Shown: in pieces, positions 1-40,103 of the stretch | How the letters are laid out: each line of letters opens with the position of its first letter | Position numbering within the stretch: the stretch's first letter is position 1 | Source: Omnitrophica bacterium GWA2_41_15 | GTDB taxonomy: Bacteria; Omnitrophota; Gorgyraeia; Gygaellales; UBA12090 | Assembly: GCA_919902675.1 (NCBI GenBank) | Contig: CAKKRH010000013.1 | Coordinates: 47,239 to 111,238, forward strand | DNA: 64,000 nucleotides | Direction of reading: 5' to 3' | The notes under the pieces: generated by a model | Database searches by the model: none | What the model was told of the DNA's origin: nothing | Seen by the model: the letters and a program-made list of their open reading frames with translations, nothing else | Position numbers and translations under genes: made by a program

Positions 1-811
1 CCACCGGATGGCTGGTAAAATCATTATCGCTCAAGCGTAAAAGCGTAAGTTTCTCGTCATCGTGCTCTAAGGAAACCATCTGAGATGTCCGGGAAAAATG
101 CCGGTTGAGAATATGGATATCCTTCATCAGGCAAGAAAAATTTCCCTGGACAAACTGGGTGCTGAGCAGGCGGGTTTTCTGGCTCTCCTGCGCGGTTAAA
201 TCAAGGGTGGGGGTTTTTACCTGGCTAATAATCCCGGAATGAGGCTGACAGACTAAATCCGTGATTTTTTCCGAATGCCAATGGTACCTGCGCGCGGTTT
301 GATTCTCCTGGTTCATTCCCTGCTGGACCACCGACCAGGCGCCGCGCGATGAAAAGAAAAAACTGTGATGATAGATCTGAAAGCCATCCTGGATTAAGGC
401 GCTATCCACCTTCGCGGCCATCTTGGAATTGTACACTAAATTATCAATTTTTGGCGCGGGCAGGCTTAACCTTTGGCCCCAATTCATAATTTCTGACGGG
501 GTCTTACGCGATGTCTTGCCTTTACCGCCGCAGATAAAGATGCCCAATTCCTTCTCCTGTCCGCGGAGAGCCTCTTTTAAGGCGGCAGTGAGGATGGTGG
601 TCAGGCCCGAGGCATTCCAGTCAAAGGCAAGCACTGTGCCCAGGGACTGAAACCATACCGGGTCACCGATACGCCGGATAAACTCATCCGGCCCATATTC
701 CTGGGCGATTATCCAAACCATCCCCCGCCCAAGCGTCACCATCCGCTCAAAGAGCCAACGCGGGCACTTGCCGGTATCTAATCCAAATGTAGCTATTCCT
801 CTTTGTATCAT
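1..811 (-). CDS. DUF763-family protein; the C-terminal part runs off the window start
   Basis: Edge-truncated, so absent from the ORF track. My own translation of the minus strand from the ATG at 811..809 gives MIQRGIATFGLDTGKCPRWLFERMVTLGRGMVWIIAQEYGPDEFIRRIGDPVWFQSLGTVLAFDWNASGLTTILTAALKEAL..., open down to position 1. The GKxPRWLFxRM and WFQxxG..FDWxxSGLTT blocks match my memory of DUF763. Confidence 0.6.
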   Translation of the reverse strand, partial: MIQRGIATFGLDTGKCPRWLFERMVTLGRGMVWIIAQEYGPDEFIRRIGDPVWFQSLGTVLAFDWNASGLTTILTAALKEALRGQEKELGIFICGGKGKTSRKTPSEIMNWGQRLSLPAPKIDNLVYNSKMAAKVDSALIQDGFQIYHHSFFFSSRGAWSVVQQGMNQENQTARRYHWHSEKITDLVCQPHSGIISQVKTPTLDLTAQESQKTRLLSTQFVQGNFSCLMKDIHILNRHFSRTSQMVSLEHDDEKLTLLRLSDNDFTSHPV

Positions 812-1115
812 ATAATGAAAAAAATGGTGTCGTTTCTAGCTAAGTGATTATAAATAAATATGTTACGGATTAATTACTCTGGGCCTTCCTCGTGCCCTGG
901 GTTTTACTAGCCTCAATCTTTCTCTTAAGCTATCAATAAAACTATTTGAACCAAAGACTGAATCACTCATTATGGTTTTTCTCATAAACTCAACGGTCCT
1001 GCCCTGCCAAAGGTGTCCTGATGTTTTATATTTTAAATTGAATTTAGCACAATAAATTACTAATGTAAATTTATTTGCAACTTGTTCGCAATCAAACTGT
1101 TACGTAGAAACGACA

Positions 1116-3362
1116 CTATTTTTTCTTTTCAAGAACATTCTTTAGTTTATCCAAATCTGTCACCGGAAGATTGCAAGTATGCTTTTCACAAACATAGATT
1201 GCGGGCCTGTCCGCGATTAAGCTTTGTTCTTTGGTCCAAGAAGCGAGCGATAAGATCGGATCATCTTCGCTTGATGAGCGAAACAATAATATTTTATTGG
1301 GAAGAAAATTACTGTAGATCAATGACGTTGTTTGCTCAACAAAAGTGTCAGAGGATTTTTTAGAAACTATGGCAATTTCTTTGGTCGGCGACAAAGAATA
1401 GTCTAACGCGATAAGCATCTGGGTAAACGCGGTTGGAGCGCGCGACAGATTCGCCGCGATAGACTTCAATGAATTTTCTGCCGCGTATTCAAAATCTTTA
1501 TTCAAAGTCATGCGGTTAAGTCTTAACAGAACCAGGGCGGCCATGGAATTTCCTGACGGCAAGGCGCCGTCATAATATTCCTTGGGGCGGCTCTCAAGAA
1601 TCAACTCCGCGTCCGCCGCTGAAAAGAAAAATCCGCCGGCCGGCTTGTCTTCGAATAAGCGCGTCATTTCTCCGGCCAGGTTGACGGCCTCCTTAAAATA
1701 AATAACTTCAAACGTCGCCTCATATAAATCCAAAAGCCCTTCTATAAGGAAAGCGTAATCAGCGAGAAACCCCGGAATACCGGCCGAATCATCCCTGAAA
1801 CGATGCAGGACCCCGGAGTCTTTTGTTTTCAAGGTATTTAGAATAAAATCCGCGGCTTTCTTAGACGCGGAAAGATATCGGGCTTCATGCAAGATCTTAC
1901 CTCCAAGCGCCAAGCTTGATATCATCAGGCCGTTCCAATCCGTAAGAACTTTATCATCCCGGTGAGGCCGTAATCTTTTCTCGCGCTCAAGAAAAAGCTT
2001 TTGTTTTGAAACGGACAGAATAATTCCCGTGTCCTTTAATGACTTCTTAAAATACTCTGCCGTCTCTTCAATAGTACGGCTGATTGATAAGACATTCTTG
2101 CGCTCAAATTCATCGCGCGGGTCGTTAACTACATTGCCATTATCTTTAATCCCATAATGATAGCTGAATAATTCTCCCGCCTCTTTGCCTAAGACATCGA
2201 TGATCCCGCTTTTTGTCCAGACGTAATACGCGCCTTCTTTCTTCTTTTCCGGATATTTACTGTCAGGAGCGCTGTCGGCGTCTTCAGCTGAATAAAAACC
2301 GCCCTCAAGCGAAGTCATATCCTTAAGCACATAATCAAATATGTCCCTTGCCGCTTGAGCATACTTTTCCTTTTTAGTTATTTGATAGGCCTCAAGATAG
2401 GCTTTTGCCAGCATCGCCTGGTCATAGAGCATTTTTTCAAAGTGCGGCAAAAACCACTCCCTATCGGTAGAATACCTGTGAAATCCCCCGCCTAAATGGT
2501 CATGGATACCGCCGTCCGCCATATGGCTTAAGGTATTCTCAACCATCTCAAGGGCCTTTTTATTCCCTGTCTTGTAATAATAGCGCGAAAGCAATGAAAG
2601 CGTATGTGGAGAAGGGAACTTGGGGGCGATGCTAAATCCCCCATAGGTAGAATCGTATTCAGACGATAATCTCTCAAAGGCGCTGTCAAGAACCGTCTCC
2701 GGAACAACTTCTTGCGCTTTTAAGATAATAGACAAATTCTTCAGCTCATTCGTTAACTGTCCTGCTGATTGCGCGATTTCGCCTCTCTTGTTCTTCCAGG
2801 AATCTATGATAGACAAGAATAGCTTTTTTAAATAACCAGGGGGAAAGTAGGTGCCGCCGTAAAACGGTTTTTTATCTGGGGTGAGGAAGACATTCAGCGG
2901 CCATCCTCCGGAACCGGTCATAGCCTGCACGGCATTCATATAGATTGAATCAATATCAGGGCGCTCTTCACGGTCAACTTTTATCGCGACAAAAGACCGG
3001 TTAAGAATTTCGGCAATTTCAGGATTAGAATACGACTCCTCCTCCATCACATGACACCAATGACAGGTAGAGTAGCCAACAGAGAGGAATATGGGCTTAT
3101 CCTCCTTTTTTGCTTTCGCGAATGCCTCATCAGCCCACGGATACCAATCCACGGGATTATGAGCGTGCTGCAGAAGATAAGGGCTCTTCTCCTTAATGAG
3201 ACGATTAGTAAAACTCTCAGCCTTAACCACAGCAGCCTCCAGGATAAAAACAAATAAAATCAGATACCTCACAACTATATCAAATGCTTTACATACAAAG
3301 ATATATACTGCTTCTTCATATTTTGTTGATAAAATAGAACCGTCCCTTTTCCCAACAGGCAA
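1116..3362 (-). CDS. Thioredoxin-domain protein of the YyaL/DUF255 (SSP411-like) family
   Basis: 748-aa ORF with [38 protein letters not shown] and a long alpha/alpha-toroid-like C-terminal region. The real start may be the GTG at 3272, which would give a signal-like [18 protein letters not shown]. Confidence 0.85.
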
Positions 3363-3518
3363 TCTTAATTATAATATAAACGATTTGGCATTACTACCAA
3401 AAATTTAAGGCAACCCGCGGTGTTATGGAAATCTCCGTAAGACCGCGTGTTGGAAAAAAGATTAGGGAATTATGAAAGAGGGATTACGCGGATTTGGGCG
3501 ATAAAACAGCTTTGTCAC

Positions 3519-3803
3519 CTATCCGCAAAGCTTGAGCTTATTCTCTCTGGTAAGGCCCTTAATGCGGGATTCCCGCTTTTGGGCTTGGGATCTAGTGGGG
3601 TGTTCTTCGGAATGGATGAGTTTTACCGGCCAGCGAAATCTCGTATATCTGCCGCCGTTGCCTTCATTATGGTCTTTTACTCGACGAGGAAGGTTGTTGG
3701 TGACTCCGGTATAGAGCGTTTTATCACGGCACTCGATTATATAGACGTGCCAGGATATGTGAGGCAGGTGCTCCATGAAACGTGTGTTATATGTGGAAGG
3801 CAC
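3519..3803 (-). CDS. Small GIY-YIG nuclease family protein, copy 1 of 3
   Basis: WHVYIIECRDKTLYTGVTNNLPRRVKDHNEG...QAQKRESRIKGL is the GIY-YIG (YhbQ/UPF0213-like) signature. The likely true start is MEHLPH at 3776. Nearly identical at DNA level to 5823..6080 and 9430..9717. Confidence 0.8.
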   Translation of the reverse strand: MPSTYNTRFMEHLPHISWHVYIIECRDKTLYTGVTNNLPRRVKDHNEGNGGRYTRFRWPVKLIHSEEHPTRSQAQKRESRIKGLTRENKLKLCG

Positions 3804-3859
3804 TTCGCCCCCTTCGGGGGCTCAGTGCCCAATTTTTCGCCGAGAGGCGAAAAATTGGG
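3800..3859 (-). promoter_or_regulatory. Conserved double-hairpin leader upstream of GIY-YIG copy 1
   Basis: First hairpin: GCCCCC-TTC-GGGGGC (3807..3821), nested in CACT/AGTG. Second hairpin: a perfect 14-bp stem, CCCAATTTTTCGCC (3828..3841) / GAGA loop / GGCGAAAAATTGGG (3846..3859). The same sequence recurs at 9714..9773. Confidence 0.5.
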
Positions 3860-4114
3860 GTAGCTGGCTTTCGGACTTTAGGAACTTAATGATCAGCCAA
3901 CCGACGCCGTTTAATCCGTTGTATTATCAAACCGCATCCTGCTAAACTGCGAATATGCGACTTTACAAATTGGCAATTCAATTCGCAATCTGTAAAAATA
4001 GTATCGTATAGGGTATTGTATAGGAATCAGAAGCCCGATTGCGTATAAAAAGAACGTAACCCTTTGAAAATCCAATGCTTAATTTTTATACGATTCCCGG
4101 CAATGCGTATAAAA

Positions 4115-5605
4115 CTACTGGTATTCGATCACCGCGGCCAAGGCTGTCACGACTTCTTCAATCGTCTGCGGTGAAGCCTTACCGATAAATTTCACGAATT
4201 TCTGATAATCAACGCCTCTGACCTGCAAAACATCGACTGCGGATACCTTACTGAGATTATTTTGCGCATCCGGTTCGATTTTAACGTGCCAAATATTCCC
4301 CGCGAACGCCTGTTTCCATTCCGTGATGGGGCCAACGATCTTTATCGGTAATTTGCCTATGCCGTCAGAGCTGATAACGAGAACGGGCCTGTTTTTCTTG
4401 ATTTCCGCGCCAACTGCCGGATCGAGCTTTACTTCCCAAATCTCACCACGTTGAGGAATATTGATTTTACTGCTCAAAGAAGTCTCCTGCCTGCCAAGCG
4501 GATCTGGTGTGGTCATTATCATAGTCTGGTGCGGCCTTCTCCGCTTGCTGGGCAAGGATCCTTCGTCTCTCTTCAAGGAAAGCGGGGTCTTGTCCTCGAT
4601 CTTCTCGCCCAATAGTGTTTCGGCTTCGGATTGGCCGAGCAAAGATTCAGCAAAAGCTTTATAGACGTTTTGCTTCAACCACTCCGTCCTTTCAACAGGC
4701 AAAGGATTGGGTTCTTGTCGTTTCCATCCCATCTTATTAATGCATCTGAACCATTGGACGCAATATGACTCCGAGATCATATCCAACTCTTTAAGCCGGT
4801 ATAAAATCGATTGCATGCTCATTCCGAATTTCTTCTTCAAAATAAGCAACTCTTGCAGATCAATGGCCGTTCTTTTGTCGCCAACTTCGCGCGCGATCCA
4901 TTCTTTTGGAGCCAGAAATGCCGCTCCAAAGCGAAATGCGGCCTTTTCTTCATCGACTGACTGCGTTATTTTCAAGACCAAATGGCCTAATTCATGAGCC
5001 AAGTTTAATCGCTGTCTTTCTCCGGAAGTTCCTTTTTTGACGACGATGGCTACGCCTTTGACGTGATGATCCTCATATGCGACTGCGGCCATTCCATCGA
5101 ATTTATCATTCGCATCAACTTCCAAAATATGAATAAGCTTGTTCTCTAAGATTCCGGTGATGCTGGATATCTGATCTTTACCCAAGTTCCATTCGACGCG
5201 AATAGAATCAGCGGCTTTCTCGACTTCATCCAATCTGTTTATATGAAATTTCTGTATAGGAACATTCAGCGTCGCGGTGGGACAAACAAGATTCTGAATT
5301 TTTAACCGCTCTTCCAGACTTTCCTTAACAAGGTTTTCGATGCGCGATTGTTCCTTCTTTCTCAAAGCAGATCTCTTCCGGTAAGCAATGAACTCTATAC
5401 GGTATTTGGGTTCGGAGAGCAATTGAATCGTCTTCAGATTGAATGCGCTGGCGATCTTGGCTAAAACAGGGGCTGAAGGCTGATCGAGGCCTAACTCATA
5501 TTTTGAAATAGCCTGCTTCGTGACCACTCCACCGATGTGGGCCACTAATTCATCCAGAGACCATCCTCTGGACAAACGCAATTGTTTGATTTTTTGAGCT
5601 AACAT
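4115..5605 (-). CDS. Single-chain fusion: XRE-type HTH + ImmA/IrrE (M78, COG2856) metallopeptidase + MazF/PemK-like toxin domain
   Basis: N-terminus LAQKIKQLRLSRGWSLDELVAHIGGVVTKQAISKYELG is an XRE HTH. AHELGHLVL is the HEXXH motif. C-terminus RGEIWEVKLDPAVGAEIKKNRPVLVISSD...VSAVDVLQVRGVD is MazF/PemK. There is no stop codon between the domains. The start is set at the ATG at 5605 (SD GAGGGA) because the first 11 codons of the tracked ORF cover the promoter. Confidence 0.75.
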   Translation of the reverse strand: MLAQKIKQLRLSRGWSLDELVAHIGGVVTKQAISKYELGLDQPSAPVLAKIASAFNLKTIQLLSEPKYRIEFIAYRKRSALRKKEQSRIENLVKESLEERLKIQNLVCPTATLNVPIQKFHINRLDEVEKAADSIRVEWNLGKDQISSITGILENKLIHILEVDANDKFDGMAAVAYEDHHVKGVAIVVKKGTSGERQRLNLAHELGHLVLKITQSVDEEKAAFRFGAAFLAPKEWIAREVGDKRTAIDLQELLILKKKFGMSMQSILYRLKELDMISESYCVQWFRCINKMGWKRQEPNPLPVERTEWLKQNVYKAFAESLLGQSEAETLLGEKIEDKTPLSLKRDEGSLPSKRRRPHQTMIMTTPDPLGRQETSLSSKINIPQRGEIWEVKLDPAVGAEIKKNRPVLVISSDGIGKLPIKIVGPITEWKQAFAGNIWHVKIEPDAQNNLSKVSAVDVLQVRGVDYQKFVKFIGKASPQTIEEVVTALAAVIEYQ

Positions 5606-5628
5606 AGTTAATTCCCTCATCAGTTGAC

Positions 5629-5657
5629 AATATACCATATCTTATTACATTTGTCAA
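5629..5657 (-). promoter_or_regulatory. Sigma70-type promoter with flanking inverted repeat, for the XRE-ImmA-MazF gene
   Basis: On the minus strand: TTGACA (5657..5652), a 17-nt spacer, then TATATT (5634..5629). GTTGACAA and TTGTCAAC form an inverted repeat around the -35/-10 elements, plausibly an operator for the HTH. Confidence 0.55.
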
Positions 5658-5822
5658 CCGCTATAATTTCTTGGCATTGGACCATTCTCTTGACCATTTT
5701 TAAAAGATATGCTTCTTAATTTACTCCGGATTGTCGAAATTACGTTAAGCGCATCCACACCTCTAAAATAGTCGCTGTCCATATTTATTCCGCTTGAGCT
5801 AAACGAGAGCTCGCATAGTCGC

Positions 5823-6080
5823 CTATCCGCAAAGCTTGAGCTTATTCTCTCTGGTAAGGCCCTTAATGTGGGATTCCCGCTTTTGGGCTTGGGATCTACT
5901 GGGGTGTTCTTCGGAATGGACGAGTTTTACCGGCCAGCGAAATCTCGTATATCTGCCGCCGTTGCCTTCATTATGGTCTTTTACTCGACGAGGAAGGTTG
6001 TTAGTGACTCCGGTATAGAGCGTTTTGTCACGGCACTCGATTATGTAGACGTGCCAGGGCGCAAGAGGCAGGTGCTTCAT
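5823..6080 (-). CDS. Small GIY-YIG nuclease family protein, copy 2 of 3
   Basis: 85 aa with the same WHVYIIECRDKTLYTGVTNNLPRRVKDHNEG core. It begins 22 bp after the fic stop and lacks the hairpin leader of copies 1 and 3. Confidence 0.8.
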   Translation of the reverse strand: MKHLPLAPWHVYIIECRDKTLYTGVTNNLPRRVKDHNEGNGGRYTRFRWPVKLVHSEEHPSRSQAQKRESHIKGLTRENKLKLCG

Positions 6081-6102
6081 AATTTATGGTATATAACTAT
6101 TT

Positions 6103-7104
6103 TTAATTCAGGCGGTATCGAACGGCCCTTGCCGCGCCTTCTCTGGTGACGATGCCCGAACGGACAAGCGGACTAATGAGCTGATTGACGCGGGCGCGAT
6201 TGATCTTCATAGTTTTCCTGATTTCTGGCGCGCCTAAAACATCTTTTCGTTTTAACAAATCCAAAAGCTCTTCCTGTTTAGGCGTCAACGAAATCCCTTG
6301 CAACCGAAGTGTCCCGGCCTTGATCCTGTTTTGTGCATCCTCATGCGCCCACGCCAAACCTTGGGCAACATATTCCACCCAGCGCGTAAAGTCCCGATCC
6401 ATGTCACGTGTCTGCTGGATCATGTCATAATAACGAGGCCGATCCTGCGCAAAGAAATCATCAAGGCCAAGGGTGCAAAGAGGATCAAAACCCTTTTCCC
6501 AAAGAAGCCACTGCCCGGCCGCGCGAGCCACGCGGCCATTGCCATCCACAAAAGGATGGATCGTCAGAAACTCGTGCTGAAAGATGGCACTACGGATAAC
6601 CAGATGCAAGGATTCATCCTTCGCCCAAGCAAAAAGGGCTTTCATGCGGCCCGCAACCTGCGCGGGAGGCGGCGGAGTAAAAATAACTTTATTGCGGGCA
6701 TCCACGATATAGTTCTGGACACTGCGATACTGGCCCGTTCGATCTTTGGCCAAAAGCCCCTTGATCATGCGGCCATGCACAGCCAAAAGCCCAAGTTCAG
6801 TGACCGGCTTATGTTTGGTCTTTAATATCTGCCGCATGGCTTCAACGCAATTGGCGACCTCTGTCTTCTGCTTTTCTTCAACCAAAAGATCCTTGCCGTC
6901 AACCACGGCCCTGACCTGCGCCAAAGACAGGAGATTGCCTTCAATCCATGTGGATGAATGAACGCTCCGGGCAAAAGCATCCCTCTCCAAAGGGGCCTTA
7001 ACAGACACTTTCAGCCGCGAGCTTCTGACAAGCGCACCCGTGACAGCAATCTGCTCAAACAGTTTTAAAAGGTGTGGCGTTATCCGATATTGGGCTTTAA
7101 ACAT
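6103..7104 (-). CDS. Fic/DOC family protein with an N-terminal inhibitory helix motif and a C-terminal winged-helix
   Basis: HPFVDGNGRVARAAG is the Fic core HxFx(D/E)GNGRxxR. STWIEGN fits the (S/T)xxxE(G/N) autoinhibition motif. The C-terminus LTPKQEELLDLLK...RARVNQLISPLVRSGIV is HTH-like. Confidence 0.85.
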   Translation of the reverse strand: MFKAQYRITPHLLKLFEQIAVTGALVRSSRLKVSVKAPLERDAFARSVHSSTWIEGNLLSLAQVRAVVDGKDLLVEEKQKTEVANCVEAMRQILKTKHKPVTELGLLAVHGRMIKGLLAKDRTGQYRSVQNYIVDARNKVIFTPPPPAQVAGRMKALFAWAKDESLHLVIRSAIFQHEFLTIHPFVDGNGRVARAAGQWLLWEKGFDPLCTLGLDDFFAQDRPRYYDMIQQTRDMDRDFTRWVEYVAQGLAWAHEDAQNRIKAGTLRLQGISLTPKQEELLDLLKRKDVLGAPEIRKTMKINRARVNQLISPLVRSGIVTREGAARAVRYRLN

Positions 7105-7271
7105 AATTCAAGTTTACCATATCGTATAGGTATTGTATAGGGAATTGTATAGGGCGCCAGCAATAGAGCCGCTTCTACCAATCCATATTCGCTGAATTGT
7201 CCCATTCATGGCATAAATGTTCGAGAAACTCTTTCATATCTTCTACTGAATTCATTGCCTGACGGTAAATA

Positions 7272-7410
7272 CTCACAAGGAACTCACAAGACGCTTTATC
7301 TAACCTTATCGCGCTGAGTAAGTTACGAAACAATTACGCTTTCTATATTTTTTGTGGAATTGTTTTGCAACCCAATACTGAGCAACGAGTTACATAGAGC
7401 GTCTTTTAAT
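7272..7410. repeat. 139-bp imperfect palindromic repeat, copy A (attC-like or MITE-like)
   Basis: Direct repeat of 9183..9322 with scattered substitutions. The arms AAGACGCTTTATCTAAC ... GTTACATAGAGCGTCTT are inverted repeats. Inner arms pair as well (GAAACAATTAC / GGAATTGTTTT). Confidence 0.8.
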
Positions 7411-7491
7411 TTTTATAATCAAACTTTGCGCGCTCAAAACACTGCATCATCGCCTTATGGGCGCCGTGGATATCCCCGATGGCAAGAGTTC

Positions 7492-8406
7492 TCATTCCCA
7501 CCCTCTCGGAAACTTCCATGTTTTATCGAAATTTCCATTTTCGTTAAGCGCCATAATAGGCTCAATAAGAAAATTTTCTATTTCCTTAGCCGTAGTAGAC
7601 AAAGTTTCCGGCGCGTGTTGAATATCACCTTTTTTCAAAAACGCGCTCCAAAGCGTCTGCCTGTCGGATTTTTCATCATAAATTTCATTAGCAAACAAAG
7701 GTTTTTTATTAGGGACATCTGTTTTTCTGTTATTGAACGTTTTCTTTACCGCGCTAGCAATATTTGCCCCCTTAAATTCAAACTGCCTCATCATAAGCCA
7801 GATATCGTAAAAATCTTTCATCCTGCTATTTAAAAGACCGAGTTTAATCATAGCCTCAAACTTTTCGCTGATAACACTCTCTTGGGGATATCCATTTAAA
7901 TGCGGTTTTGGAAAATCCAGAATCACCGGATAATCAATGACCTTGGTCCTTGGATATACAATATCACCAAAGCCCACGTCAATCTGCATCGGGATCCTCG
8001 CGCGGTCTAAAAAACCGGTGAATTTTACACGCACCCCTTCATAGTCCGCGTCTTCTTTGATCTTCGTTCCTTTGACTGTTTGAGAATCAAAATTAAGCCC
8101 GTCAAGATCCACGCTGATGTCGCATACCTCTTTCATCACTTTTTCGATAGTCGTGACCTCATTATCAAAACGGGCTAAGAAATCAATATCAAGAGTTGTG
8201 CGCCTGTCAGGTATCTGCCATACAGCGAATAAAAGCGCGCCTTTTAATACAAACTTATCAGCGTATTTTGATTTGCTGAACCGGTAGAGAAATCTCTCCA
8301 TGCCGTAATACTGCATTACTTCCGCGAATGGGCGATTTGTTTCTTTCGCTTTATTTTGTAGCTGTGCCTTAACGGAAGCCTCTATGTTTTTTACTTCTCT
8401 CTTCAT
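7492..8406 (-). CDS. abiEii: AbiEii/AbiGii-family nucleotidyltransferase toxin (type IV TA / abortive infection)
   Basis: MERFLYRFSKSKYADKFVLKGALLF...RRTTLDIDFLAR is the typical AbiEii N-terminal nucleotidyltransferase fold signature. It overlaps the upstream AbiEi gene by 4 nt. Confidence 0.8.
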   Translation of the reverse strand: MKREVKNIEASVKAQLQNKAKETNRPFAEVMQYYGMERFLYRFSKSKYADKFVLKGALLFAVWQIPDRRTTLDIDFLARFDNEVTTIEKVMKEVCDISVDLDGLNFDSQTVKGTKIKEDADYEGVRVKFTGFLDRARIPMQIDVGFGDIVYPRTKVIDYPVILDFPKPHLNGYPQESVISEKFEAMIKLGLLNSRMKDFYDIWLMMRQFEFKGANIASAVKKTFNNRKTDVPNKKPLFANEIYDEKSDRQTLWSAFLKKGDIQHAPETLSTTAKEIENFLIEPIMALNENGNFDKTWKFPRGWE

Positions 8407-9005
8407 AGCATGGTTTCTATTATTGGTTTTATAATTCTGTCAACACGGCAAATCTTCGCGTATTCCATAATATCCTTTGGCTTGACATGCTTTTCAGTAA
8501 TGGCAACCTTCAGCGCCTCTCTGGCAACATTCAGCCCGATTCTATTACGAAATTTAAAACAATCGGCAACACTCTTTGCGAGGCTATAAATTTTTACCGT
8601 ATGGCCTTCGATCTCATGTTTTTCGACTCCGGCCTTCCAAGTGTCGGGAGCAAACCTATAAAATCTAACAGGTGGATATTTAATTCTGTTTTCATGAGTG
8701 CCTCGGGGTATCGCGACATCAACGTATTTGGGTATTTCATTTGTTGCTTCATGAAAAGCAAGCGCCGAAAGAAGGCATACTGTCCCCTTAGGAATTTTAA
8801 TTGAGATAGCCACAAGGTCGGGATTGGAAAACGACATGCCTTCTGAGAGACTATAAAGCCCTCTGTCCAGTTTCTGAATATTATTGTTATCAAGGCTGAC
8901 TTTGATGAGCGCTTTATTGAAACCCGCTTCATCAAGTTCAGAAAAACTGGCCATTCCGCCTTTTTGTTTGAGAAATTGAATAAGTTCCGCTTCTTTTGAG
9001 CCCAT
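8403..9005 (-). CDS. abiEi: AbiEi-family antitoxin / transcriptional regulator
   Basis: The N-terminal winged-helix LIQFLKQKGGMASFSELDEAGFNKALIKVSL...LDRGLYSL and translational coupling to AbiEii support the call. Confidence 0.75.
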   Translation of the reverse strand: MGSKEAELIQFLKQKGGMASFSELDEAGFNKALIKVSLDNNNIQKLDRGLYSLSEGMSFSNPDLVAISIKIPKGTVCLLSALAFHEATNEIPKYVDVAIPRGTHENRIKYPPVRFYRFAPDTWKAGVEKHEIEGHTVKIYSLAKSVADCFKFRNRIGLNVAREALKVAITEKHVKPKDIMEYAKICRVDRIIKPIIETML

Positions 9006-9182
9006 TCGTATCGCTCCTTATCTATTTACACTTGTGCATAAGTGTATAGCATTTGGGATAGCATGTCAAGCGGTATTTTTCTAACGGCTGGAAATGATAC
9101 CATATATCCTTACCCCCTCTTTTATAAGGGGAAGTTAAGGAAATTGCTTTGTATAAGTAAAGAGGTTTTTGAAAGATTAAAG

Positions 9183-9322
9183 AATCACAAAAATCACAAG
9201 ACGCTTTATCTAACCTTATCGCGCTGAGTGAGTTACGAAACAATTACGCTTTCTATATTTCTTTCGCGGAATTGTTTTGTAACCTAATGCTGGGCAATGA
9301 GTTACATAGAGCGTCTTTTAAT
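9183..9322. repeat. 139-bp imperfect palindromic repeat, copy B
   Basis: Same element as 7272..7410. Together the two copies bracket the abiEi-abiEii pair. Confidence 0.8.
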
Positions 9323-9429
9323 ATATTAATGCCATCATAACTAACTGCTTATCAATTAGTTAGGAAACTTTTTTTCCGCGATAAATATTTCACAACTATT
9401 TATCAAAAAGACATGAAGGGTATCTCTGG

Positions 9430-9717
9430 TTATCTCTCGCATAATTCGAGCTTCTTGGCTCTGGTAAGGCCCTTGATGTAGGATTCCCGCTTTTGGGCTT
9501 GGGATCTACTGGGGTGTTTTTCGGAATGGACGAGTTTTACAGGCCAACGGAATCTCGTATATCTGCCGCCGTTGCCTTCATTATGGTCTTTTACTCGACG
9601 AGGAAGGTTGTTGGTGACTCCGGTATAGAGCGTTTTATCACGGCACTCGATTATATAGACGTGCCAGGATATGTGAGGCAGGTGCTCCATGAAACGTGTG
9701 TTATATGTGGAAGGCAC
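9430..9717 (-). CDS. Small GIY-YIG nuclease family protein, copy 3 of 3
   Basis: 95 aa with the same core as copies 1 and 2. The likely start is at 9690. The hairpin leader is repeated at 9714..9773 (14-bp stem at 9742..9755 / 9760..9773). Confidence 0.8.
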   Translation of the reverse strand: MPSTYNTRFMEHLPHISWHVYIIECRDKTLYTGVTNNLPRRVKDHNEGNGGRYTRFRWPVKLVHSEKHPSRSQAQKRESYIKGLTRAKKLELCER

Positions 9718-10396
9718 TTCGCCCCCTTCGGGGGCTCAGTGCCCAATTTTTCGCCGAGAGGCGAAAAATTGGGGTCGCTGGTGGCTTGGTAAAGGTAAAA
9801 GGTTTATTATTGTTAGATGGATTTCCCTGCCAAATACTACCGCGACTTATACTATTACTGCTACTCCTCCGCCTAAAAATTGCTCTTTAGGAAATAAAAT
9901 CAGATTCGCGAGGCAATCTCTCGGAAAGACTCAAAAAACGCTTTCTGAAATGATTAAGCATCCCCGGAGCTTAATCAGCCGTTATGAACAAGACAAAATC
10001 AGAAAACCCAATACCAAAGTCCTGCTTGACATCGCAAAGTCTCTGAAGGTCAGCCCTGATAAGCTAATCTCTATCCAGCAATTCCAACCAATTGGAAATA
10101 AGGCAGAAATTGATAAGCTTTATGCCTTTCTCAAAACCCCGCATAACTTCGGCAAAAAACTAAGAGACTTACGCCTTCGGGCAAATATTGAACAAAAGGC
10201 CTTGGCCCTGGAAGTCGGGATTAACCGCGAAAGTATCCGGCGCTATGAAAGGAATATCACCCGGCCAAGCAAAGCGATTTTAGCCAAAATCATAGAGGCT
10301 TTAAAAGACTCTTCCCGCAAGCTGCAAGAGAAATATTACCATAATAAAGGCGCTGACTCAAGTAAATTTGTAGCAAAAATTGAAAGGAGGAATTGA
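9689..10396 (+). CDS. Tandem XRE-type HTH protein (two HTH_XRE domains); start uncertain
   Basis: The two HTH units are IRFARQSLGKTQKTLSEMIKHPRSLISRYEQDK and LRDLRLRANIEQKALALEVGINRESIRRYERN. The only in-frame ATG upstream of the first HTH lies inside the GIY-YIG repeat, antisense to the GIY-YIG start. The 5' 200 nt may therefore be repeat-derived or untranslated. Confidence 0.55.
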   Translation: MKRVLYVEGTSPPSGAQCPIFRREAKNWGRWWLGKGKRFIIVRWISLPNTTATYTITATPPPKNCSLGNKIRFARQSLGKTQKTLSEMIKHPRSLISRYEQDKIRKPNTKVLLDIAKSLKVSPDKLISIQQFQPIGNKAEIDKLYAFLKTPHNFGKKLRDLRLRANIEQKALALEVGINRESIRRYERNITRPSKAILAKIIEALKDSSRKLQEKYYHNKGADSSKFVAKIERRN

Positions 10397-10398
10397 AA

Positions 10399-10692
10399 AT
10401 GAGAATAAGCAAATTATGGCTGTTTATAATGATATCGTTTATTGCCGGTTTTGTCTGGGGGCGGGTATCTACCGCTGACTTGCCTCAACGTTACCCTGAG
10501 ACAAGAATAGCCATTGGCGGAGATGAGCAAATGGTTTCGCTGGATATCTTAAGGGATAAAGATAATATCCGGATCATTGACCAGGAGACCGGCCAGCTGA
10601 TATTTGAATACAACCGTTACAAAGAAACAGATAGAGGCGCATTCAGGGAATTTGAAGCGGTGCTTATAGAAATTATGGACGGGGACGGTTAG
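10399..10692 (+). CDS. Small membrane-anchored protein, unknown function
   Basis: An AGGAGG SD precedes the ATG at 10399. MRISKLWLFIMISFIAGFVWG forms an N-terminal TM helix. I recognise no motif. Confidence 0.5.
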   Translation: MRISKLWLFIMISFIAGFVWGRVSTADLPQRYPETRIAIGGDEQMVSLDILRDKDNIRIIDQETGQLIFEYNRYKETDRGAFREFEAVLIEIMDGDG

Positions 10693-10876
10693 AGATTTCT
10701 CTTAAATTCAGCCGGTTATTGATTATCTTGCCTTCCTTGGCCGGGGATATTTCCAAATAGTACTGGGTGCCGTCGCTTTTAAGCATTACACGGATATAGC
10801 CTTTCCGGTGCTTCTTGACCATTCGCCAGCCTTCAAGGATCTCTTCTTCGTCAAAGCTGATATCTTCTCTTTCCAT
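10673..10876 (-). CDS. Hypothetical 67-aa protein
   Basis: ORF only. It has no clear SD and no recognisable motif. Confidence 0.25.
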   Translation of the reverse strand: MEREDISFDEEEILEGWRMVKKHRKGYIRVMLKSDGTQYYLEISPAKEGKIINNRLNLREISNRPRP

Positions 10877-11152
10877 AGGCGTATTTTAGGCCTTATATCT
10901 TAACCGAAGAGTATCTTGCTTTGGGCGCGATAACCGGGTAGTTATCGCCCATAAAGGAATTTACCGCTCTTTTCGCCTTTTTTGCCTTTATCCGCAGGAA
11001 ACGGACAAACAGCCGGCAGAAAGCCTTAGCGCTCATAGAATACCCCTTTTTTTAGCCGTTTTTCAGGCTCTTGAATGAAAAGGAGAAGAACACCCTTCTT
11101 CCCCACAGTAAACAAAGTATAACATATTATTGCCATTTTGTCAAGTTACATA

Positions 11153-11181
11153 TTGACAAAACATATTATTTGTTGTATACT
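11153..11181 (+). promoter_or_regulatory. Consensus-like sigma70 promoter for the XRE-cupin / two-component operon
   Basis: TTGACA (11153..11158), a 17-nt spacer, then TATACT (11176..11181), 24 nt before the ATG at 11205. It is flanked by repeated AACATATTAT(T)TG motifs and by GTATAACA...TGTTGTATAC dyad symmetry. Confidence 0.6.
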
Positions 11182-11204
11182 TTAGATAAGAAAGGCTGTG
11201 TTAT

Positions 11205-11762
11205 ATGGATATAGGAGAAATCATAAAGAAACTGCGCGCTGAAGCGGGATTGACCCAGGCGCAATTAGGAGAGAAGTCCGAGCTTAGCTTTACCACTATC
11301 TCTAAGCTGGAAAAAGGCTCACTTACCGGTACTATCCCCACCCACCGCAAGCTGGCCCAGGCCTTCAACCTTAGCCTATCGCAATTCTACCAGGGGCTGG
11401 ATGAGCCGGAAAAAGAGCCTCTAAAAGTTACCTCCACCTCAAGGCCGCAGGCCGATATATTTTATTACAACGATAAAGCCATATCCCAGATACTGCTTAA
11501 AAAGGCCGGCCGGCATAATATGCTTCCGGAATTAGTGCGCCTTGAGCCGCGCGGGGAAACCGCCTTAGAGCAAAAGCCCAGGGGCGTTGAGCAGTTTATC
11601 TATGTTTTGGAAGGGAAAATTAAGCTGAAAGCAGGCGGTGATACCTTCAGGCTCAAAAAAGGAGAATGTATCTATATTGATGCCTTTCTTCCCCACACAA
11701 TGAAGAATGACTCAAGCGCCGCGGCAAAGATACTCAAGGTAACCTCACCGGCCACATTATAG
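11205..11762 (+). CDS. XRE-family HTH + cupin-domain transcriptional regulator
   Basis: The N-terminal IKKLRAEAGLTQAQLGEKSELSFTTISKLEKG is an XRE HTH. The C-terminal EQFIYVLEGKIKLKAGGDTFRLKKGECIYIDAFLPHTMKN is cupin-like. Confidence 0.8.
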   Translation: MDIGEIIKKLRAEAGLTQAQLGEKSELSFTTISKLEKGSLTGTIPTHRKLAQAFNLSLSQFYQGLDEPEKEPLKVTSTSRPQADIFYYNDKAISQILLKKAGRHNMLPELVRLEPRGETALEQKPRGVEQFIYVLEGKIKLKAGGDTFRLKKGECIYIDAFLPHTMKNDSSAAAKILKVTSPATL

Positions 11763-11786
11763 GCATAGAAAGAAAGGGACAACACT

Positions 11787-12152
11787 ATGGCTAAGGAAAA
11801 AATAGTTATCTGCGATGACAATGAGGGAGTGCGGGAATCATTAAGACTGATCTTAGAGGACAATTATCAGCTGGCATTTGCCGATAACGGATTCGCGGCG
11901 ATTGAACAGGTTAAAAATGATTCGGTAAGCCTGGTGCTTTTGGACATCAAGATGCCCCGGCTAAACGGCATTGATACGCTTAAGGAAATACTTAAAATAA
12001 AGCCGAAAACGAAAGTTCTCTTCGTGACCGGTTATCAGTATACAGACGCGGCAAAGGACGCGCTCAAGAATGGGGCTTTGGATTACATCGTCAAGCCCTT
12101 TGAACCGCAGGAGCTGAAAGACGCGGTCAAAAAGGCCCTGGACAAAAAGTGA
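11787..12152 (+). CDS. Single-domain response regulator (CheY-like receiver)
   Basis: KIVICDDNEGVRE...LVLLDIKMPRLNGIDTLKEI...KVLFVTGY...DYIVKPF has the receiver-domain acidic pocket, the phospho-accepting Asp and the conserved Lys. Confidence 0.9.
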   Translation: MAKEKIVICDDNEGVRESLRLILEDNYQLAFADNGFAAIEQVKNDSVSLVLLDIKMPRLNGIDTLKEILKIKPKTKVLFVTGYQYTDAAKDALKNGALDYIVKPFEPQELKDAVKKALDKK

Positions 12153-39779: not shown

Positions 39780-40103
39780 TCAATCCGCATTTCTTGCCCC
39801 GGGCTTAAACTGAAGCACCCGCAATAAAGCCTCTATCGCTGGGTGCGGATAGATGTCGTTTCTTTCGCTGTCTATATCAAAAATGACTCCGTAACCGGTA
39901 ATTGTTTCCAGCTTGTCAATGGTCCTGTAATAAATATCTTCAATAGAATTAGCGATTTCCCAAATGAGCTTATCGTCCGCCTTGTTGGTGATAAAAATAC
40001 CTCCCAAACATAGGGCGATGTCCCTAAAGGCTCCATTAACCAGGTCGTAGAGCTGTTTTTCTTTTGATTGCCGCATATTGACACCTCCTCCTTCTTTCTT
40101 CAC
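39780..40103 (-). CDS. Hypothetical 107-aa protein
   Basis: ORF in the co-oriented gene string, with no recognisable motif. Confidence 0.4.
   Translation of the reverse strand: MKKEGGGVNMRQSKEKQLYDLVNGAFRDIALCLGGIFITNKADDKLIWEIANSIEDIYYRTIDKLETITGYGVIFDIDSERNDIYPHPAIEALLRVLQFKPGARNAD

Follow-up and report, generated by a model that had tools for sequence, protein, structure and literature searches.

On the minus strand of the 64-kb window (the whole stretch of 64,000 nucleotides analysed here), one uninterrupted reading frame encodes an XRE-type helix-turn-helix (HTH), an M78 metallopeptidase and a MazF endoribonuclease. Is this an evolved, self-contained switch in a single polypeptide, as an earlier note on this DNA proposed, or a mutated toxin–antitoxin (TA) module? 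All features of the module described below lie on the minus strand. The open frame spans 5638..4115 and, by ORF calling, encodes 507 aa from its upstream ATG. However, that ATG at 5638 falls within the promoter, so the start is likely the ATG at 5605, which is preceded at a distance of 8 nt by the Shine–Dalgarno sequence GAGGGA (5618–5613) and gives a fused ORF of 496 aa (4115..5605). The ORF terminates at TAG (4117–4115).

The presence of three domains in this frame, as first read from the translation, is borne out by Pfam HMM searches. The XRE-type HTH occupies residues 6–58 (5432..5590; HTH_3, E = 2.8e-11), and the M78 (ImmA/IrrE) zinc peptidase domain occupies residues 183–272 (4790..5059; Peptidase_M78, E = 1.3e-10), with its HEXXH motif at H204-E-L-G-H208 (4996–4982). 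The C-terminal MazF/PemK endoribonuclease domain covers residues 385–492 (4130..4453); the PemK_toxin match takes in positions 1–108 of the 109 in the profile (E = 1.4e-22), and the proposed MazF fold thus passed its HMM check with a near-full-length match. This part also matches the solved structures of Mycobacterium tuberculosis MazF9 (E = 2e-6) and Bacillus subtilis EndoA in the PDB, and the Arg of its NRPVLVIS segment corresponds, in the alignment, to that of QRPAVVVS in MazF9. The antitoxin part is matched by 14 PADLOC models of RmrA, the antitoxin of RosmerTA, all confined to residues 1–333 and the best of them (E = 4e-40) covering residues 3–312. In NCBIfam the top match for the 496-aa product is the spr1629 repressor/antitoxin family, at a score under the cutoff of that family.

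The module has a promoter and operator of its own (5623..5658). The -35 element TTGACA (5657–5652) and the -10 element TATATT (5634–5629) are separated by a 17-nt spacer and score 11/12 in a motif scan, and an 8-bp inverted repeat, GTTGACAA (5658–5651) and TTGTCAAC (5630–5623), overlaps the promoter. The element is kept entire in four related loci, L001, L002 and L003 among them, and the homology of the window to its relatives starts at the promoter/operator, just upstream of the element. The operator-flanked promoter that the earlier note had placed at 5629..5657 is upheld. From its HTH, together with the palindrome that overlies the promoter, the module would be expected to repress its own transcription.

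Two-gene relatives and their mazF genes

The relatives examined range from 98% DNA identity to about 35% protein identity and belong to several phyla, and all of them divide the same content between two genes. The first encodes an XRE-M78 antitoxin of about 390 aa with a conserved C-terminal tail of about 45 aa; the second, a separate mazF of about 120–135 aa, overlaps the antitoxin gene. The 120 best full-length homologues of the 496-aa product are 380–420 aa long (most of them 389–402 aa) and cover only about 70% of the query. A PemK domain is absent from all 120, including one at 96% identity. This closest protein, P0001 (locus L001), is a 395-aa antitoxin that ends in SLKKIRSFMKLPLEERRRILAEQAEKAASDYDNDHTRAAWQAGDFLEQ followed by a stop, and the mazF of its locus lies in another frame, overlapping the 3' end of the antitoxin gene. 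All tail-bearing relatives that were looked up have the two-gene arrangement: three loci in Omnitrophota (L001–L003), those of P0018 (L006–8) and P0033 (L009), one in the cyanobacterium Anthocerotibacter panamensis, whose genome is complete (P0070, L010), and one in an Armatimonadota metagenome-assembled genome (MAG; P0115, L012).

Larger searches gave the same picture. Among 1.84 billion cluster representatives searched with HMMER, the 150 best matches align only to query residues 1 to about 367, and a full-length search returned 969 clusters at E <= 1e-5, mostly matching the antitoxin part. From the other end of the protein, the 120 best MazF matches are stand-alone proteins of 77–138 aa, many of them cyanobacterial. 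The only fused sequence is the window's own protein; no other fused protein occurs among the best matches of the three large protein searches. In these searches the fused protein itself sat inside the cluster represented by P0001, and rare fusions at strain level elsewhere could hide likewise, whereas a conserved fused family would not. A scan of species-representative genomes, a set that lies apart from the window's own contig, returned four relatives. Collectively, the RmrA-like XRE-M78 antitoxin with its tail and MazF form a large two-gene family, apparently uncharacterised, that is present in several phyla. Literature searches found no account of a pairing of XRE/M78 (COG2856, ImmA) proteins with MazF, of the MazF-partnered clade, of its tail or of a MazF fusion.

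Gene calls in the relatives give mazF products of 114–138 aa and place the candidate native starts of the window's mazF within 4475..4542. One candidate is ATG 4522–4520, preceded by the Shine–Dalgarno sequence GGAGAAGG (4542–4535), which gives 135 aa; the other is TTG 4477–4475, preceded by AGGAG (4488–4484), which gives 120 aa and would overlap the old antitoxin stop by 11 nt. The separate translation of MazF from an internal start (MIM), which had been offered as an alternative to the fusion, turns out to be the normal state in every relative examined. The MIM start itself stands as a candidate for the native start of mazF, but the TTG-type start is the commoner one among homologues, most of which are 120 aa long and begin MS.KINIP.RGEIW. 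The MazF frame of the window is intact with conservative changes only, and both candidate starts are still present with their ribosome sites. Programmed frameshifting was also considered for the two-gene relatives, but nothing was found in its favour; upstream of mazF, its frame stays open only over a short, unremarkable stretch.

The deletion junction and the antitoxin tail

Aligned with the DNA of five relatives (L001, L002, L003, L021 and L022), the window is short by exactly 34 nt, which each of them has and which code there for KIRSFMKLPLE. In the nearest alleles, L021 and L022, the 34 nt are flanked by a 9-nt direct repeat, CCTTGAAGA, of which the window keeps a single copy at the junction (4570..4578). 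As 34 = 3 x 11 + 1, the loss brings the antitoxin's reading frame into register with that of mazF. Residues 346–376 of the product, RDEGSLPSKRRRPHQTMIMTTPDPLGRQETS (4478..4570), are out of frame when compared with L001 and L021. The earlier note took this region for a basic, Pro-rich linker joining peptidase and toxin; it is not a linker domain but tail-coding DNA read in the wrong (mazF) frame. In the old frame, tblastn recovers a relic of the antitoxin tail, LEERRRILAQQAEKAAPDYDNDHTRSAWQAGDFFEQ (4467..4577), which is 89% identical to the L001 tail and no longer translated, and the old antitoxin stop (TAA, 4469–4467) is still readable. It is near certain that the fusion was derived by deletion from a two-gene module. 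Deletions between short direct repeats are classic products of replication slippage, and the 34-nt deletion is probably of this type.

The deletion and the frameshift begin exactly at the boundary between the globular part of the antitoxin and its tail. The consensus of the tail, which makes up the last 45 or so residues, is R.FMKLP.EERRRIL.EQAEK...Y..D....Q.GD(F/I).E, and it is conserved down to an identity of about 36%. An AlphaFold model of P0001 has a mean pLDDT of 87.7; its globular part (HTH, M78 and helical domain) stops at about residue 343, residues 344–347 fall below pLDDT 50, and the tail beyond is predicted as three helices of middling confidence. In this model the tail has the look of a flexible, partner-binding extension. 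Its occurrence follows that of the toxin: a PemK gene adjoins all eight tail-bearing loci and none of the four loci in which the tail is absent or truncated. In two of those four (P0132 and P0193) there is no neighbouring toxin gene, and in the other two (P0197 and P0206) a PIN/DUF3368 toxin follows. Stable relatives without tail and toxin thus exist as well; P0132, one of this kind, is found on 10 contigs. From the co-occurrence with MazF and the look of a flexible extension, we infer that the tail is a MazF-specific element that binds and neutralises the toxin. A profile built from 34 tails gave only chance-level matches to the PDB and Pfam, and resembled no solved antitoxin or Pfam family.

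In its peptidase part the P0001 model is closest to the folds of CapP (7t5t) and PprI (8sln). If the module works like ImmA, IrrE and CapP, the part that responds to a trigger is likely the M78 domain, which might cleave the antitoxin in the linker that precedes the tail.

Taken together, these observations are most probably explained by the mutational decay, in this Omnitrophota lineage, of a type II module consisting of an RmrA-like antitoxin and MazF; the window would then hold a crippled allele and not an evolved switch. The native locus would be a two-gene type II TA operon in which the antitoxin, built from XRE HTH, M78 peptidase, helical C-terminal domain and the conserved, flexible tail of some 45 aa, precedes the MazF endoribonuclease, with the start of mazF overlapping the 3' end of the antitoxin gene. 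Slippage between the two CCTTGAAGA repeats would have deleted 34 nt, or 11 codons plus one base. Ribosomes that initiate on the antitoxin would then read the remaining tail DNA in the mazF frame and continue into MazF. The predicted product is the antitoxin core followed by 31 nonsense residues and MazF, with the tail gone.

Sister alleles and rival readings

The fused allele is not confined to one record. The exact 496-aa product is deposited as NCBI MEK6564196.1, from a Candidatus Omnitrophota MAG, and it is encoded on seven contigs, of which four are named: in ENA ERZ1292620 (Hain_H52_02um_R1, 157 kb, coverage about 79), in ERZ1300416 (26 kb, coverage about 16), in ERZ1292617 (Hain_H52_01um_R3) and in Logan SRR24529256, whose contig occurs in five samples. 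Over 1.6–2.8 kb, each of these four matches the window at 100% identity. The claim that the frame is open across 4440–4520 is thereby confirmed by identical DNA in separate assemblies, and since different libraries and assemblers agree, the deletion is present in the DNA. Groundwater assemblies share the fused allele.

The nearest sister alleles are L021 (NCBI GCA_038041365.1, JBBTGT010000425.1) and L022 (ENA ERZ1292640, Hain_H43_02um_R1). Their antitoxin core is identical to that of the window at 344 of 345 residues, and they keep both the 34 nt and an intact tail. In their mazF, a +1 insertion of A directly before the conserved Arg (GGCACGGAAAATC versus GGCGCGGAAATC in the window) breaks the gene into pieces of 70 aa and 99 aa. 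When the codons of the window are compared with those of L021, the antitoxin core shows 16 synonymous differences and 1 non-synonymous, and mazF shows 3 and 5, a pattern which points to purifying selection on the core. The lesions and the codon differences together indicate that the HTH-M78 core is conserved and that the toxin arm, mazF or tail, is variously disabled. The allele of the window is real, a natural population tolerates it, and it is a mutational derivative found in one strain; the toxin arm of the module is being lost in the lineage through alternative lesions. The contig names containing H52 and H43 suggest a single groundwater site.

These data bear directly on the other ways in which the locus could be read. 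A false 34-nt deletion, introduced in sequencing or assembly and joining genes that are separate in reality, is very unlikely: the identical sequence recurs in ERZ1292620, ERZ1300416, ERZ1292617, SRR24529256 and the NCBI MAG record, from different libraries and assemblers, the 157-kb contig is covered about 79-fold, and a deletion bounded by a 9-nt repeat appears typical of replication slippage and not of assembler error. Slighter still is the chance that the three-domain architecture is ancient, with the fusion either ancestral or a family of its own and the two-gene forms as split derivatives. The uninterrupted frame alone speaks for it, against the nesting of the fused allele within two-gene alleles at 98% DNA identity, the conservation of the 34 nt and the in-frame tail across phyla, and the persistence of the old tail frame and stop in the window. 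Given the phylogenetic nesting and the relic tail frame, an ancestral fused form was rejected.

More weight, though still at low probability, belongs to a newborn functional switch for TA or abortive infection in a single chain, which is the model of the earlier note narrowed to one strain. In this unlikely reading, the HTH-M78 core would silence MazF in cis without the tail, either because it tethers the toxin to DNA or because it masks it sterically, and the M78 peptidase would free MazF by cutting the new basic, unstructured linker. In its favour, the fused allele is abundant and recurs reproducibly, which shows that the fusion is tolerated although the MazF domain is intact; the antitoxin core is under purifying selection, and fused TA proteins such as CapRel occur elsewhere (PMC10440598). 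However, the fusion is conserved nowhere among the best matches searched, its linker is frameshifted sequence that was never under selection, the conserved tail is destroyed, and mazF is being lost outright in sister strains, an indication that this lineage can dispense with the toxin arm. The evolved, self-contained single-polypeptide switch of the earlier note is likewise not sustained, as the fusion belongs to one strain, was made by deletion and destroyed the conserved tail; three large searches revealed no fused homologue, and the closest sisters have two genes with a frameshifted mazF. In a weaker variant, a tail-less, abundant allele with an intact MazF would mean that this antitoxin family neutralises MazF by means other than the tail; this variant and the newborn switch are, even jointly, improbable.

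For mutational decay, the preferred reading, the tolerance of the allele needs an explanation. With the tail as the neutraliser, MazF would be expected to be toxic once free; the allele nevertheless lies on a contig with about 79x coverage. The fused MazF could be inactive or sequestered. Little free MazF might be made, because upstream ribosomes would run through the same frame and termination–reinitiation at the old stop would be lost. Autorepression could be tight, or an antitoxin encoded elsewhere in the genome might act in trans. Within the 64-kb window there is no second copy of the module able to neutralise MazF in trans; a weak match at 39902–40009, considered as a second copy, is not a MazF gene. 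With regard to RNA elements, Rfam searches of 3400–6200 gave nothing meaningful, the roughly 140 conserved nucleotides after mazF show no covariation, and no tRNA was found in 1–12000. Decay and a very young functional fusion cannot be separated by sequence alone, the number of substitutions gained after the deletion being too small.

The case carries a caution for genome scanning, in that what looks like a remarkable fusion of several domains can come from a deletion in one strain that shifts the frame across two overlapping genes; one comparison with close relatives settles such pseudo-fusions. Further, the alternative lesions (tail lost and genes fused with mazF intact, versus antitoxin intact with mazF frameshifted) constitute a natural experiment on how the module is disarmed, and this allelic series bears on whether the tail is needed for neutralisation of the toxin.

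Comparison with known systems

Fusions of XRE and COG2856 domains paired with toxins have been known since the study of Makarova et al. in 2009, in which the partners were mostly PIN and RelE and MazF is not listed as a usual one (PMC2701414). Millman et al. gave the toxin systems with XRE-COG2856 antitoxins the name RosmerTA (bioRxiv 10.1101/2022.05.11.491447). In the NetFlax study, XRE-COG2856 forms a hub node of antitoxins whose partners and gene order vary, for which "node domain fusions" were noted (PMC10440598). The antitoxin of the window shares the RmrA layout of XRE HTH plus M78 (bioRxiv 10.1101/2022.05.11.491447; PMC10440598; PMC2701414), and by its PADLOC match to RmrA (E = 4e-40), its Pfam HTH_3 and Peptidase_M78 domains and its HEXXH motif it belongs with the RosmerTA antitoxins. 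As in RosmerTA, the toxin is adjacent in one operon and relatives swap toxins, with MazF here and PIN/DUF3368 in more distant relatives. However, no PADLOC model, RmrT included, matched residues 346–496 at E <= 1, and the toxin is PemK/MazF. The antitoxin clade of the window also differs in bearing the MazF-linked C-terminal tail, and the two genes of the window are joined by deletion.

The likeness to MazEF lies in the toxin, which has the MazF/PemK fold and is homologous to MazF9 and EndoA, and in the gene order of the relatives, with antitoxin before toxin and the genes overlapping. In contrast to MazE, which has an AbrB or RHH fold, the antitoxin is a 390-aa XRE-M78 protein; no MazE in the PDB or Pfam is matched by the tail profile. 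With ImmA/ImmR, IrrE(PprI)/DdrO and CapP/CapH, the module shares the M78 peptidase fold, as modelled for P0001, and the presence of an XRE HTH partner. The response of ImmA-type M78 proteins to a trigger has been summarised (PMC10440598; PMC2701414). Unlike in those systems, HTH and peptidase reside in one chain in the window, and the output is a MazF toxin instead of derepression of an element or regulon.

CapRel is a natural fused toxin–antitoxin protein (cited in PMC10440598), and proteins of this type resemble the product of the window in holding toxin and antitoxin parts within one polypeptide. Their fusion, however, is the conserved architecture of a family, whereas that of the window is a deletion allele of a single strain without the presumed neutralising segment: the genes are separate and overlapping in eight of eight tail-bearing relatives and fused in the window. 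The MazF-partnered family is a little-described member of the XRE-COG2856 antitoxin kind, and the fusion is a mutation at strain level.

Toxin-antitoxin and defence island around the fused gene

The gene fusing the XRE HTH-M78 antitoxin core to MazF is set in a toxin-antitoxin/defence island. Over 6103-9005, all on the minus strand, the island encodes a Fic-domain protein (6103-7104), the AbiEii nucleotidyltransferase toxin (7492-8406) and, upstream of AbiEii and overlapping its gene, a 200-aa product (8403-9005) presumed to be a putative AbiEi antitoxin. The cassettes are set apart from one another by GIY-YIG genes, three small and near-identical copies of which are found on the minus strand at 3519-3803, 5823-6080 and 9430-9717. 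Further, the toxin-antitoxin module lies between two copies, 94% identical, of a direct repeat of 268 nt, one at 3509-3776 and the other at 5813-6080. In or near these repeats end four short contigs, L018, L019, L021 and L022, which come from this strain and from sister strains. At L001, a related two-gene locus, the module is also preceded by a GIY-YIG gene, an unrelated one.

Non-coding DNA downstream of mazF

A non-coding stretch of ~140 nt downstream of mazF (3856-3996) is conserved, with 86% identity to L001 and 76% to L003, a second related two-gene locus; nothing in Rfam matched this stretch, and covariation gave it no support. Compared with L001, the window and the sister strains carry ~116 nt extra (3997-4112) after the mazF stop, ahead of the conserved stretch. 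Within this insert lies a 24-nt motif, GTATCGTATAGGGTATTGTATAGG (4001-4024), a second copy of which (92% identical) is located upstream of the Fic gene at 7130-7153.

Possible constraint on, and probable decay of, the module

The Shine-Dalgarno sequence of the overlapping mazF start, AGGAG (4484-4488), falls in the codons for the conserved GGD/AGD of the antitoxin's C-terminal tail, residues that belong to the conserved tail motif Q.GD(F/I). As these codons serve both functions, part of the tail conservation may reflect a nucleotide-level constraint.

In the sister strains, mazF (L021, 1191-1653; L022, about 1213-1675) is split directly before the conserved Arg by a +1 A insertion equivalent to window position ~4409, and 344/345 residues of the antitoxin core are identical to those of the window. 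The insertion is an alternative route to disarming the same module.

Orphan XRE-M78 homologues, with no adjacent toxin gene, occur at L014/L015 (P0132) and L024 (P0193); P0132 is without the tail, and that of P0193 is truncated. Since these orphans exist, P0132 on 10 contigs, the HTH-M78 core is retained even where no toxin accompanies it, a hint that it has a role independent of the toxin.
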